Below are positions 51,245-54,780 of a DNA stretch of 64,000 nt, in pieces. The stretch's first letter is position 1, and the number at the start of each line of letters is the position of its first letter. The position numbers and the translations under genes are program-made. Source of the DNA: Patescibacteria group bacterium (GTDB lineage Bacteria > Patescibacteriota > Minisyncoccia > UBA9983); the NCBI GenBank assembly GCA_018895015.1, contig JAHIOX010000003.1, positions 962 through 64,961 on the forward strand, in the 5' to 3' direction. Under the pieces are notes generated by a model. It did no database searches. It worked only from the letters and a program-made list of their open reading frames with translations, and was not told where the DNA came from.

Positions 51245-51247
51245 ATT

Positions 51248-51280
51248 TACCACTTATCTGCGATAGCAAGTAAATGGTAA
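51248..51280. repeat. hairpin-repeat family copy 3 (CCACTTATCTGCGATAGCAAGTAAATGG)
   Basis: matches 6378-6405 and 7019-7055. Confidence 0.5.
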
Positions 51281-51301
51281 ATATGTAAATCTATTGATTG
51301 C

Positions 51302-51350
51302 GCAAATTGGAAAAGTTGAAAAAAACCGAAAATCTACTAGAATAAAAAAC
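51302..51350 (+). promoter_or_regulatory. duplicated promoter module (GCAAATTGGAAAAGTTGAAAAAAACCGAAAATCT; TTGAAA-16-TAGAAT) upstream of the peptide gene
   Basis: 34-bp identical copy at 53605-53638 forms the tRNA-Ala promoter. Confidence 0.5.
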
Positions 51351-51379
51351 AGATAAAGATTATTGGCAAGGAGGAGATT

Positions 51380-51508
51380 ATGGAAAAACCATATGAAAAA
51401 CCACGAATCAAAAAGCTGGAGAAAATGACTTTCCCAATGGATATCATCACAAAAAAGACAGGGAAAGTAGTCTGCAAACAATGCTCCAGCTGCCACAACT
51501 GCCGATAA
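51380..51508 (+). CDS. 42-aa Cys-rich peptide MEKPYEKPRIKKLEKMTFPMDIITKKTGKVVCKQCSSCHNCR
   Basis: AAGGAGGAG SD 6 nt upstream; strong terminator downstream; not in the 60-aa ORF track. Confidence 0.45.
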   Translation: MEKPYEKPRIKKLEKMTFPMDIITKKTGKVVCKQCSSCHNCR

Positions 51509-51530
51509 CTTTTAAAGTTATTGGCCAACT

Positions 51531-51567
51531 CAAAAGCCCCGACGTCGGGGCTTGATTTTTTTTATTC
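51531..51567. terminator. bidirectional terminator AGCCCCGACGTCGGGGCT + T8
   Basis: 9-bp GC stem, T8 run; A-run on the other side. Confidence 0.65.
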
Positions 51568-51570
51568 CTG

Positions 51571-52575
51571 TTATTTTTTTAACGCGTCTTCCAGCGCCGA
51601 ATAAAAATCTTGGCCGGCCGATTCCGGCCTCTCTTCAAAACCGTACAATTCTTTAAAAATTTGCGTGGGGTCAACAACCGCTATTTCTATTCCCCTTTTT
51701 TGCAATTCTCTCAAAATTCTCAAGTGCTCTTTAAACCAACTTTTGCCAATCCCAAATGTTCTTTCTAATTCATCAGCGGTTTCTCTAATTTTTTCTTTTG
51801 CGTCCTCCTTGTATTCTTTTCCTGGCGCTGTTAAATCCATCTTCCCGATTTTTAGCCAGCTCAATCCCCTTTTTACCAAACTTTGCCTGTAAGTAACGGC
51901 GGGCGACAAGGAATAAATAACTAAATCATAGCCGTCCGGCAAACCTTCTGAACCGTCAAAACGCTTCAGCTTGCCGTCAGCGTCTCTTTCGTTATCCAAG
52001 CCATGCACATCTTCTATAATATTTGCGTTCCCTTGCCATTTCGGAGGAAAAATTTTTTGATAATCTCTATCCCAAGAAATAATGCTTTGCTCGGAACATT
52101 TTTCAGACAGCTCCTTAGTTAAAACAGTTCTTAATGTCGCTTTTCCAGATATGCCGATTCCGCTGACTAAAATGTTAAAAGGTTCCGGAGACTGCTTTGA
52201 TTTATTGACAAATTTTTCCTTAACGCCATCAACGAAATTTCCGAATTTCTCCAGTTTTTGAAAATATTTTTCCGGAGAACTGAAAAATCCCCTCTGGCGC
52301 GACTCCGGATTTACAGAAGAAAGATTTTTAGCTCCCAAATAATTTAATACTAAAAGCTCTAATTCTTCTCTTTCAAAATCTTCCGCCTTAAAATCTCCTT
52401 TTTCATAATCAGAAAGATGTTTCTGGGTCAATTCAAACCATCTTTTATCCTGCTCCTCAATTGAAAAATTATTTAGGTTTTCCCAAATTTCAGGATTTAT
52501 ATTTCTCAAAAAATTCTCAGTGGCTGATTTCCTTTCTCCATCCTCAATTTTATTTTCCAACATACTTTCTTTCAT
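51571..52575 (-). CDS. P-loop NTPase/kinase-like hypothetical protein
   Basis: deviant Walker A VSGIGISGKATL; no close family recognisable. Confidence 0.45.
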   Translation of the reverse strand: MKESMLENKIEDGERKSATENFLRNINPEIWENLNNFSIEEQDKRWFELTQKHLSDYEKGDFKAEDFEREELELLVLNYLGAKNLSSVNPESRQRGFFSSPEKYFQKLEKFGNFVDGVKEKFVNKSKQSPEPFNILVSGIGISGKATLRTVLTKELSEKCSEQSIISWDRDYQKIFPPKWQGNANIIEDVHGLDNERDADGKLKRFDGSEGLPDGYDLVIYSLSPAVTYRQSLVKRGLSWLKIGKMDLTAPGKEYKEDAKEKIRETADELERTFGIGKSWFKEHLRILRELQKRGIEIAVVDPTQIFKELYGFEERPESAGQDFYSALEDALKK

Positions 52576-52585
52576 GCCAATAATC

Positions 52586-53575
52586 TTAATTTAATTTTAA
52601 AATTTTTTCAATCTCGCTCCTGTTTTGATTCAATAATTCCAGCTCCTTAAACAACCCGTTGTTTGCGTGCCGCCAATCTTTTTTATTTCCGGACAATATG
52701 GCATGCAAACAAAAAGCCAGCGCTCTTTCCAAGACCGCGAAATTAATGGCGTCCAATAAAAACTTCTTCTCCGGTAAAGACAGTTTTCTCTCTTTTTGGT
52801 AACCGCCTATCAAGGCGCGGAAATTATCATTGCTCCATTTTTTCCAATTATTCGTAAAGCACCATCCCCTGCACGCCTGGCCCAAATCTAAAACAATCTT
52901 TCCGTAATAAGCTCTGTCAAAATCCACTATTGCCGAGATTTTATTTTTATTCCACAAAACATGCCGTTTCCCTAAATCTTCATGTATCATGCCAGCGGGC
53001 AAAATGTTGGGAAAATCCAAAGATAAAATTTCTTTTTCGTATTTTTCCAAAAACTTTCCTCTGTCTTTAAAACTGCTTTTTAAAATGATCGCCTTCGCTT
53101 GCTTAAAATGTTTCTGCGTTTCTTTCAAATCAAAAATATTCGTTCTTTTATTTTTAGTTTTGTAGTTTTCCGTAAGCGAATGAAACCGTCCCACTACTTC
53201 TCCGAACTTTTTTATCTCGCCTATCAAAGGATTCAGCTTCTCTGCCGCGTTTGAAAATTCTCTTAAATATCCGCAATGCTTTTTCCAAGAAACAATTTCC
53301 TCTCCATCATTAGTTTTAACCGGGCAATACACCGGAAAATTATTTTTCTTTAGGTAATTTAAAAGCTCTAATTCAGCCTCTATCTCTTTCTTGCTGCGCC
53401 AGCGATGCCCAAACGGGCATAATCTTAAAAAATATGATTTGTCCGCGGTTTTTATTACATACGCTATATTTCCGCTGGTTGCCAAAGGGCTGATCTTTTT
53501 TATTTTTTCCAAATTGAATCGCGCCAAAATTTTACCCAAGGCAACGGAAGAAAATTTTTGTTTGCTCAATCGCAT
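52586..53575 (-). CDS. APH/homoserine-kinase-II-like phosphotransferase
   Basis: IHEDLGKRHVLWN (HxD) and IVDFDRAYYGKIVLDLG motifs. Confidence 0.6.
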   Translation of the reverse strand: MRLSKQKFSSVALGKILARFNLEKIKKISPLATSGNIAYVIKTADKSYFLRLCPFGHRWRSKKEIEAELELLNYLKKNNFPVYCPVKTNDGEEIVSWKKHCGYLREFSNAAEKLNPLIGEIKKFGEVVGRFHSLTENYKTKNKRTNIFDLKETQKHFKQAKAIILKSSFKDRGKFLEKYEKEILSLDFPNILPAGMIHEDLGKRHVLWNKNKISAIVDFDRAYYGKIVLDLGQACRGWCFTNNWKKWSNDNFRALIGGYQKERKLSLPEKKFLLDAINFAVLERALAFCLHAILSGNKKDWRHANNGLFKELELLNQNRSEIEKILKLN

Positions 53576-53604
53576 AAATTTATTTTATTATACAACACCC
53601 TAAC

Positions 53605-53647
53605 GCAAATTGGAAAAGTTGAAAAAAACCGAAAATCTGCTAATATC
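53605..53647 (+). promoter_or_regulatory. tRNA-Ala promoter (TTGAAA-16-TAATAT), second copy of the duplicated module
   Basis: hexamers 53619-53624 / 53641-53646, 13 nt upstream of the tRNA 5' end. Confidence 0.5.
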
Positions 53648-53659
53648 ATTACTGTGATT

Positions 53660-53732
53660 GGGCCCGTAGCTTAGTTGGTAGAGCGCCTCGTTTGCAACGA
53701 GGAGGTCAGCGGTTCGAATCCGCTCGGGTCCA
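53660..53732 (+). tRNA. tRNA-Ala (anticodon UGC)
   Basis: cloverleaf with 7-bp acceptor containing G3:U70, anticodon loop TTTGCAA, T-loop GGTTCGAATCC; CCA not encoded. Confidence 0.9.
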
Positions 53733-53778
53733 CAACGTCAGGTTTTAAAAAATTTGTTGATGGTGTATAATTGGAAGG

Positions 53779-54780
53779 ATGAAAAAAACAATTCTTACCG
53801 GCGACAGGCCCACTGGCAAATTGCACCTTGGCCACTATGCCGGCTCATTATTAAACAGGATAAAACTGCAGGAACAACACAACCAGTTCATAATGATAGC
53901 CGACACACAGGCATTGACCGACAATGCGGAAAATCCCGCGAAGATTCGCGAAAATGTTTTGGAAGTGGCGCTTGATTATCTTGCTATCGGCATTGACCCG
54001 AATAAAACCACCATATTTATACAATCTTTGATACCGGAGCTCGCGGAGCTTACGATGTATTTTCTGAATTTGGTAACTCTTGCAAGATTGCAAAGAAACC
54101 CGACCGTAAAATCCGAGATGGCACAAAAGGGGTTTGGCGCGGATGTGCCTGCCGGTTTTTTAATTTATCCCATAAGCCAAGCGGCAGACATCTTGGCCTT
54201 TAAAGCCGATTTGGTGCCGGTCGGCGAAGACCAATTGCCGATGATAGAACAGGCCAACGAAATAGTTGAAAAATTCAATAGGTTTTACGGCCCGGTTTTC
54301 AAAAAAGTAAAAGCCGAACTTTCTGAAACAGGCAGGCTCCCGGGCATAGATGGAAAAAGCAAAATGAGCAAATCGCTGGACAACGCCATTTATCTTTCCG
54401 ACACCGCTGAAGAAATAAAAAAGAAAGTAATGGATATGTACACCGACCCAGGACATATACACGCCGAAGACCCTGGCAAAGTGGAGGGCAATATTGTTTT
54501 CAGTTATTTGGACGCCTTTGGCGCGGACAAAAAAGAACTGGAAAAAATAAAAGAGCGCTATCAACGCGGAGGGCTTGGCGATGTGGCGCTGAAAGAAAAA
54601 CTGATTAACATACTCGAAGAATTAATAAACCCAATCAGAGAACGGCGCGAGATTTTATCCAAAAATCCAAAAGCGATTATGTCCATGCTTGAAACCGGAT
54701 CTGAAAAAGCCAGATCTGTCGCGAAAGAAACTCTGTCAGAAGCCAAAAAAGCGATGCGATTAAACTATTTTTCAGAATAA
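53779..54780 (+). CDS. trpS: tryptophanyl-tRNA synthetase
   Basis: GDRPTGKLHLGHY (HIGH), KMSKS. Confidence 0.95.
   Translation: MKKTILTGDRPTGKLHLGHYAGSLLNRIKLQEQHNQFIMIADTQALTDNAENPAKIRENVLEVALDYLAIGIDPNKTTIFIQSLIPELAELTMYFLNLVTLARLQRNPTVKSEMAQKGFGADVPAGFLIYPISQAADILAFKADLVPVGEDQLPMIEQANEIVEKFNRFYGPVFKKVKAELSETGRLPGIDGKSKMSKSLDNAIYLSDTAEEIKKKVMDMYTDPGHIHAEDPGKVEGNIVFSYLDAFGADKKELEKIKERYQRGGLGDVALKEKLINILEELINPIRERREILSKNPKAIMSMLETGSEKARSVAKETLSEAKKAMRLNYFSE

Follow-up and report, generated by a model that had tools for sequence, protein, structure and literature searches.

Maturation that depends on a RiPP recognition element (RRE; RiPP, a peptide that is synthesized ribosomally and then modified post-translationally) has a standard gene layout, in which a short peptide comes right after a PqqD-type protein and a radical S-adenosylmethionine (rSAM) enzyme with a SPASM domain, as in the pyrroloquinoline quinone (PQQ), mycofactocin, sactipeptide and ranthipeptide systems. 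Extra or unlinked copies of the precursor gene are known for pqqA. In the prochlorosins, the procA precursor genes are dispersed and served by one ProcM, with a conserved leader far from the maturase gene; the cores are hypervariable, and maturase and precursors are carried in one genome. In lasso peptides, the RRE binds a YxxPxL motif of the leader. We describe here a 42-codon, cysteine-rich peptide gene in a stretch of 64,000 nucleotides from a Patescibacteria group bacterium of the Parcubacteria (assembly GCA_018895015.1, contig JAHIOX010000003.1, positions 962 to 64,961; this whole stretch is called the window below). The peptide belongs to a family under strong purifying selection whose usual partners are an rSAM/SPASM gene and a PqqD-like gene, and these partners are absent from the 64 kb of the window. 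Our reading, which we hold as probable while leaving real room for others, is that the gene is an orphan precursor of this rSAM/SPASM and PqqD-linked family, packaged as a moron-like unit beside a separate kinase operon.

A conserved cysteine-rich peptide and its usual partners

The gene on which the analysis centers is the following:

51380–51508, plus strand: 42-codon gene, MEKPYEKPRIKKLEKMTFPMDIITKKTGKVVCKQCSSCHNCR, called from its open reading frame (ORF), its homologues and codon constraint

Its product has a leader-like part (YEKPRI, KMTFPMDI) followed by an invariant C-terminal CxQCSxCHxC[RK]. A protein search with this peptide returned only two called homologues, as is expected for a product of 42 residues, and both adjoin an rSAM/SPASM gene, a PqqD-like gene or the two together. 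Further homologues were collected by back-translated pattern scans of GTDB representative genomes, metagenomes and IMG/VR, which gave 10 loci in GTDB genomes, 194 metagenome stretches (80 of them kept) and 20 IMG/VR contigs, more than 200 homologues in total, at 48–76% identity. The GTDB loci are from Hippea, a BMS3 bacterium, Syntrophobacter, Desulfosalsimonadaceae, Desulfobacterales, Phycisphaerae, Pseudomonadota, Dehalococcoidia and Nanoarchaeota, and the family as a whole ranges over Desulfobacterota, Campylobacterota, Planctomycetota, Chloroflexota, bacteria of the candidate phyla radiation (CPR), Nanoarchaeota and many uncultivated phages. In one count, all 76 distinct sequences fit the pattern YEKPxIxKxxKMxFPxDIIxxxGxxVCKQCSSCH[NGS]C[RK]-stop. 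The window peptide is 64–76% identical to P0001, P0002, L026 and L028, and it has every invariant position of the family, including the leader Y, P, K-M, F-P and D-I.

The codons tell the same gene apart from a chance ORF, a candidate that was rejected on the homologues and on codon constraint. A comparison of 88 distinct nucleotide versions of the last 12 codons shows no change at the residues C, Q, C, S, C, H and C, while TGC/TGT and CAA/CAG are each used at about 50:50 and all six serine codons occur. This synonymous saturation at invariant residues means that the protein is under strong purifying selection. A comparison with locus L015, from a second species, agrees: it differs from the window by six synonymous codon changes over the invariant C-terminal motif (VCKQCSSCHNCR). 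The window peptide had no match in Pfam or NCBIfam, and its best match in PHROGs has an E-value of 0.099; a cluster peptide (L006) had no match in NCBIfam, the SCIFF model included, and tblastn against the isolated phage genomes of INPHARED gave no match to the peptide. Among the literature searched, no paper contains CKQCSSC and none describes the gene cluster, so the family is apparently undescribed so far. The earlier note, a reading of the DNA made before this analysis, had held that the peptide escapes standard annotation pipelines, and indeed the ORF is not called as a gene in two same-species records whose gene calls cover the interval. The gene missed in this way is a member of a small-peptide family that ranks among the most tightly conserved ones met in our search.

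Two variants of the peptide were seen. In one of 120 copies (L086 2532–2567), TGA replaces the third cysteine codon (CKQCSS*HSCR), and a hairpin of 6–7 bp, not statistically unusual, starts 12 nt downstream; candidate explanations are that the copy is a pseudogene, that the sequence contains an error, or that selenocysteine is recoded here. L053 and L084 have a second, divergent paralogue (Y[TK]KP.F.K...CRQCSGCHGCR) beside the standard copy.

In 26 of the 80 metagenome loci and six of the 10 genome loci (one of the six, L003, begins at the peptide gene and was counted by its identity to L004), the gene order is the same: rSAM/SPASM (about 340 residues), PqqD-like (about 98 residues), peptide, and then four downstream genes. 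The first of these, the fourth gene of the cluster, encodes a protein of 600–1180 residues with a metallo-beta-lactamase (MBL) segment; the fifth encodes a 268-residue alpha/alpha-toroid protein resembling squalene-cyclase or prenyltransferase repeats; the sixth and seventh encode an AsnB-type amidotransferase and a GT4 glycosyltransferase. The rSAM enzyme carries Radical_SAM and SPASM domains, and it falls far below every NCBIfam equivalog cut-off. Its best NCBIfam matches are the ACGX-system enzyme, AhbD, SbtM and MftC, with the ACGX-system rSAM on top at 185.6 bits against a cut-off of 400, and its family contains more than 1500 proteins at E<1e-40. As the peptide follows the rSAM/SPASM and PqqD-like genes in about a third to half of the loci, it is likely their substrate. 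By analogy, the N-terminal two thirds of the peptide would be the leader, and the CxxCxxCxxC tail would be the part that is modified.

The window has no such partners. None of its ORFs of at least 110 residues contains CxxxCxxC, and tblastn of the 64 kb with the rSAM of L001, the PqqD of L001 and L002 and a downstream cluster protein gave nothing significant (best rSAM E = 0.058). The rSAM-family search, with more than 1500 matches of which few are named, returned none from this metagenome-assembled genome (MAG).

Of about 11 distinct loci with rSAM clusters, seven are flanked by defense genes recognized by PADLOC, a count made without a matched control set:

L009 16990–19236; L011 2993–6339; L096 2–1153: type I restriction-modification
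L007 72–4994: DrmMI or type IIG, with an SspB/BrxP-like protein
L006 2178–8486: PDC-S37/Hhe
L004 6421–7725: HEC-01A/AbiL-like
L100 2782–4452: PDC-M51A

A role in phage–host conflict is possible from this context but not established. Compared with PADLOC directly, the cluster proteins and the two kinases of the window gave only a generic radical-SAM match to viperin.

Duplicated promoter-like element and the kinase operon

The interval 51301–53733, which holds the peptide gene, is best read as three separate things and not one cassette. Its features, together with the adjoining start of trpS, are listed here:

51301–51339, plus strand: repeat copy 1, with phased A-tracts, −35, a spacer of 16 nt and two leading bases of the −10; predicted to drive the peptide gene as its promoter
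51368–51374, plus strand: Shine–Dalgarno (SD) sequence AAGGAGG, 5 nt before the ATG at 51380, by direct reading
51534–51563, no strand assigned: intrinsic terminator, an 8-bp GC-rich hairpin (51534–51553) and T8, −15.2 kcal/mol
51571–52575, minus strand: P-loop kinase-like protein of 334 residues, with Walker A GIGISGKAT and an N-terminal helical extension
52586–53575, minus strand: APH-fold phosphotransferase of 329 residues (PF01636, E=2.6e-19, 70.4 bits against a cut-off of 23.2)
53587–53616, minus strand: divergent promoter-like site for the APH operon, TTTCCA (53616–53611), 18 nt, TATAAT (53592–53587)
53604–53642, plus strand: repeat copy 2, with −35 TTGAAA (53619–53624) and spacer; predicted promoter of tRNA-Ala
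53660–53733, plus strand: tRNA-Ala (TGC), seen also in an Rfam scan
53750–53789, plus strand: third, degenerate repeat copy, 29/40 against 51287–51326, spanning the promoter-like site, SD and start codon of trpS

What the earlier note had read directly from the letters of this interval was confirmed, namely a 34-bp exact direct repeat, promoter-like hexamers at both copies, the SD, the peptide ORF with its terminator, and on the opposite strand an ORF with GIGISGKAT and an APH-like ORF (the last by PF01636). The exact 34-mer occurs only at 51302–51335 and 53605–53638 within the 64 kb, and 100 shuffles gave no match, even when up to three mismatches were allowed. The repeat extends to 39 nt (38/39, with one A/G mismatch), and no further match of at least 27/39 is found on either strand of the window. 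By consensus scan, copy 1 gives TTGAAA-16-TAGAAT at 51316–51343 (−35 at 51316–51321, −10 at 51338–51343), and copy 2 gives TTGAAA-16-TAATAT with a TGn extension at 53619–53646 (−10 at 53641–53646). The first two bases of the −10 are inside the repeat in both copies, the sequences diverge from there, and the repeat stops 17 nt short of the tRNA-Ala 5′ end. The hexamers match the sigma-70-type consensus at 10/12 and 9/12 positions, the latter with TGn; please note that the scan, at 16–18 nt spacing, found 16 such sites in the region against 8.3 expected by chance. We infer promoter activity for both copies from this likeness. The best-supported account is a local promoter duplication, by which the peptide gene would have been given the upstream element, −35 and spacer of the tRNA gene.

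That the repeat might be a common promoter motif, a doubt raised in the earlier note, was rejected as far as the 64 kb can show: they contain only two copies and one degenerate copy (29/40) at trpS. The degenerate copy is the sole other match of at least 27/40 in the window, and 100 shuffled queries never rose above 28. The match places the repeat TTGAAAAAAAC on the trpS start ATGAAAAAAAC, with the −35 TTGAAA opposite ATGAAA, and a duplicated trpS 5′ end is therefore a possible origin of the module. This hints at two events, an older one in which the trpS 5′ region was duplicated and the recent 39-nt copying, perhaps in that order.

The terminator is placed between the convergent peptide and P-loop genes, an arrangement that L015 shares, and it may act in both directions because there is an A-run on its 5′ side. 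The −35 of the divergent APH site falls within repeat copy 2. The −10 of that site ends 11 nt before the APH ATG, implying a very short leader.

The P-loop protein seems closest in fold to small-molecule kinases of the type I PanK, glycerate-3-kinase and uridine-kinase-like types. For the APH protein, the nearest family is homoserine kinase II, although its scores stay below the equivalog cut-offs (104 against 271 and 90 against 256 bits), and its closest PDB entry is 2ppq (E=4e-9). APH followed by P-loop is a conserved two-gene operon of Paceibacterota, which we found in seven other neighborhoods (L016–L025), all without the peptide, and neither kinase is found at about 200 other loci of the peptide family. 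Only at L015 does the peptide gene follow the P-loop gene closely in convergent orientation, as it does in the window; between L015 and the window, the P-loop protein is 69% identical and the kinase-operon DNA about 75% identical. With the kinase genes convergent to the peptide gene and a terminator between them, the adjacency appears to be inherited in a small clade rather than a sign of functional coupling, and the P-loop protein is probably not part of the peptide system.

On either side the locus is bounded by housekeeping genes, LeuRS, YchF, ClpP and Nfo on one side and TrpS and an ABC transporter on the other. Two further assemblies of the species, GCA_018896515.1 and GCA_022013055.1, agree with the window in every base of the two repeat copies and of the peptide gene; a third, GCA_018898075.1, has a contig that breaks off within the APH gene, so that repeat copy 1 and the peptide gene are all that can be seen of them. 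The guanine-plus-cytosine (GC) content is 0.37–0.40 in the interval against an ORF mean of 0.40, so GC content as a sign of recent transfer was tried and showed no anomaly. The Rfam scan around the locus gave nothing except the tRNA. Between the nfo stop codon and repeat copy 1, at 51247–51286, ATTTACCA...TGGTAAAT makes up an imperfect hairpin, which has an inner stem and lacks a T-run (read by eye only).

Stand-alone copies beside phage and tRNA genes

The window is not alone in this, as 79 loci show neither an rSAM nor a PqqD gene. For 47 of these the sequence reaches at least 1.5 kb upstream of the peptide gene, and there the absence is therefore meaningful. Around stand-alone copies, genes for phage packaging and heads dominate, and they come from many different PHROG families; in a PHROG scan of 129 neighbor proteins, the large terminase, portal, head-tail adaptor and head morphogenesis families lead. 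Examples of the gene orders are:

L042: TerL, small membrane protein, peptide, portal
L073, L107: peptide, then P22-type portal
L008, L043, L112: portal, then peptide
L010: portal, protease, scaffold, peptide
L045: peptide, then tail fiber J
L012: peptide, then TerL

The 20 IMG/VR contigs likewise have the peptide without an rSAM gene, and one contig of a Nanoarchaeota MAG has a lone copy. Stand-alone and cluster peptides are interleaved, with up to 84–95% identity, and the leader Y, P, K-M, F-P and D-I are kept equally strictly in both; this strict conservation of the leader suggests that the stand-alone peptides still meet the same partner.

Stand-alone copies are also often found next to tRNA genes. 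In the 489 kb of stand-alone loci, five of six distinct tRNA clusters are 12–257 nt from the peptide gene and on the same strand:

L027 4415–8126: array of 31 tRNAs, ending 147 nt before the peptide
L039 7869–8094: tRNA-Met, 31 nt before the peptide
L122 2716–2920; L123 5992–6196: tRNA-Pro, 12 nt after the peptide
L088 7995–8447; L110 3860–4312: tRNA-Thr, 257 nt after the peptide
L026 383–852: tRNA-Ser, 256 nt after the peptide

Over the 306 kb of cluster-type loci there is a single tRNA, and its distance to the peptide is 9.8 kb. With five independent tRNA-adjacent elements, co-expression with tRNAs would therefore recur in the peptide family, and the window may reach the same tRNA-linked expression by copying a tRNA promoter.

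Three further observations were made on these loci. In several loci without an rSAM gene, the peptide is adjoined by a gene for an Asn_synthase-domain protein of about 246 residues (L074 8138–8878; L040 7024–7767; L078 306–1040; L084 141–815; L118 2865–3404; L121 743–1345), which echoes the full-length AsnB homologue of the clusters. A third conserved context of the peptide occurs on low-GC contigs (L032, L033, L035, L038, L048, L053 and L080), where a 94-residue gene overlaps the peptide start, a 103-residue gene comes right after the peptide, and the other members are a class I methyltransferase and a pair of paralogous proteins (phrog_8198), each about 390 residues long, with neither an rSAM gene nor recognizable phage hallmark genes. 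Finally, the 90-kb contig JGI24724J26744_10000075 contains the same 16-kb region twice (L073 and L077), about 48 kb apart; the region matches a 47,975-bp IMG/VR genome (L107), and the contig probably represents a circular phage genome in concatemeric form.

Competing explanations and likeness to known systems

We propose that the 42-codon ORF encodes an orphan substrate peptide of a widespread rSAM/SPASM and PqqD-like (RRE) maturation system. YxxPxI...KMxFPxDI would be the recognition leader, presumably bound by the RRE, and VCKQCSSCHxC[RK] the part that is modified. The gene would be packaged as a moron-like unit, composed of the 39-nt copy of the tRNA-Ala promoter core, a −10 derived from the junction, a consensus SD and the terminator, and such a unit should give strong, tRNA-like expression. 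Rather than acting unmodified, the peptide would be matured in trans, with the maturase encoded elsewhere in the genome or in a host cell. The APH and P-loop genes would be an unrelated small-molecule kinase operon that came by chance to lie between the promoter copies, with its divergent promoter overlapping copy 2. Maturation in trans is the leading view here; a mimic or decoy, or an unmodified metal-binding role, is its main rival. Some points weigh against our proposal. There is no maturase within 51 kb upstream or 12 kb downstream of the peptide gene; of the few named top matches of the rSAM family, none is from Patescibacteria; the promoter and the terminator are consensus matches only; and AlphaFold gave the peptide a pLDDT of 65 and no confident fold, which is uninformative.

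A peptide without a maturase of its own might instead exploit or jam the rSAM machinery of a host as a mimic or decoy, or its unmodified Cys4-His tail might bind metal. Host-dependent phages, CPR bacteria and DPANN archaea would then carry the precursor only, for example to titrate the RRE or maturase of a defense-island system. The 47 loci without rSAM or PqqD genes in at least 1.5 kb upstream, with their terminase, portal, adaptor, protease and scaffold neighbors, fit this idea, as do the 20 IMG/VR contigs, the lone Nanoarchaeota copy, the identity of 84–95% between stand-alone and cluster peptides and the PADLOC genes flanking seven of about 11 rSAM clusters. However, the idea is built entirely on guilt by association, the cluster proteins match no PADLOC model except the generic radical-SAM of viperin, the defense count lacks a matched control, and the window itself shows no phage genes; we consider it unlikely, though it deserves to be kept in mind. 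More doubtful again is a broader version, in which the near-invariant peptide would be the shared object of a host–parasite conflict: free-living anaerobes would mature it with an rSAM/SPASM–PqqD cluster located in defense islands, and phages, CPR bacteria and DPANN archaea would carry precursor-only genes, often co-transcribed with tRNAs or, here, behind a copied tRNA promoter, either to feed on that machinery or to jam it. Equally, a peptide-derived cofactor similar to PQQ or mycofactocin could be the product, with the precursor supplied as an auxiliary gene. That the ORF is a functionless, decaying relic of a past phage or cluster insertion would agree with the lack of partner genes nearby, but it is very improbable for an intact ORF with a consensus SD and all invariant family positions, in which the change at the C-terminal motif relative to L015 is synonymous only, at a distance where the P-loop protein is 69% identical.

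The earlier note had preferred to tie the three genes together, either as a RiPP-like locus with a borrowed tRNA promoter and two modifying kinases or as an integrated cassette with att-like repeats. From the former, a real and conserved gene of RiPP-precursor type behind a duplicated promoter core stands, and the kinases as modifiers do not. That they lie beside the peptide gene both in the window and in L015, hence in two species, and that the peptide has a conserved Ser-Ser could speak for phosphorylation of, e.g., the CSSC serines; but the operon occurs in seven contexts without the peptide, about 200 peptide loci have no kinase, the genes are convergent with a terminator between them, and the folds point to PanK, glycerate kinase, uridine kinase and homoserine kinase II, so that we rejected this role on co-occurrence and fold and give it hardly any weight. 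The kinases are conserved and the peptide is absent beside them in most relatives, a pattern the note had named as telling against a joint locus; elsewhere, however, the peptide is strongly conserved. A cassette of 2.3 kb, with the 39-nt repeats as attL/attR-like scars, would explain why direct repeats flank exactly three genes and why L015 has the same three genes with a different neighbor on the APH side, and the degenerate third copy at trpS hints at older duplications in the intergenic region. Yet the ORFs profiled around the interval, to which the look for recombinases was confined, are housekeeping genes and include no integrase or transposase, and the repeat is in a promoter, 5′ of tRNA-Ala, and not in the tRNA 3′ end. 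Upstream of APH, L015 has no tRNA-Ala and nothing similar to the repeat (best score 11, where the mean for shuffled sequence is 12.9); the comparison covers the APH side, as L015 is cut off on the side of the peptide. The three genes thus occur there with neither the tRNA nor the repeat on the APH side, and the repeat therefore appears to belong to the tRNA side rather than to a three-gene cassette. GC content is not anomalous, and the four assemblies of the species show no polymorphism here. On the profiled ORFs, the position of the repeat and L015, we rejected the att-type cassette as quite improbable.

Should the adjacent rSAM/SPASM enzyme of the clusters act on the peptide as its substrate, this would be a new RiPP or peptide-derived-cofactor system, and its precursor gene would have been captured repeatedly by phages and reduced-genome symbionts. 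For CPR biology, the window would then offer a rare, highly expressed accessory peptide whose partner enzymes are perhaps outside the cell's own genome. The locus would also illustrate the copying of a promoter to arm a newly acquired small gene.

Among the known systems, mycofactocin (MftA/MftB/MftC) and PQQ (PqqA/PqqD/PqqE) likewise combine a short peptide of conserved C-terminus with a PqqD-type chaperone and an rSAM/SPASM enzyme, and the likeness extends to the cluster's glycosyltransferase and its other tailoring genes. The rSAM of the family matches mycofact_rSAM (E=6e-40) and PqqE (E=4e-24), but below the equivalog cut-offs (137.4 against 265 bits for MftC, 85.3 against 381 for PqqE). 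The family core is CxxCxxCxxC, in contrast to the C-terminal Val-Tyr of MftA and the Glu/Tyr pair of PqqA, and no MftD/MftE or PqqB/PqqC homologues were seen. Ranthipeptides (SCIFF) and sactipeptides also share the Cys-rich C-terminal core and a SPASM-domain maturase, and their PapB and StsB family models are weakly matched by the rSAM of the family. However, the peptide matches no model in NCBIfam or Pfam, that of SCIFF included, and the cluster differs by its separate PqqD protein, AsnB-type enzyme, giant MBL-domain protein and GT4. The family core is nearly invariant across phyla, unlike the typical cores of antimicrobial RiPPs.

The Y-x-x-P-x-I leader, the discrete PqqD-like protein (compare B1) and the asparagine-synthase homologue recall lasso peptides. 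In contrast to these, the C-terminal core of the family has no Asp/Glu acceptor of the kind expected at core position 7–9, no B2 transglutaminase-like protease was found, and the AsnB homologue scores as a true asparagine synthase (292 bits against a cut-off of 267) rather than as a lasso cyclase (111 against 525). The stand-alone precursors, which keep a conserved leader far from a maturase, are similar to the prochlorosin precursors, but their core is invariant, and many of the orphan copies belong to phages or to symbionts of reduced genome, where no maturase is in sight. The organization of the window gene is similar to that of a phage moron, i.e., a small gene with its own promoter-like site and intrinsic terminator between unrelated genes, and homologues of the family do occur inside phage late operons. 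The window copy differs from a phage moron in its location, a housekeeping region of the chromosome with no prophage genes, and in its promoter, which would be a local duplicate of a tRNA promoter.

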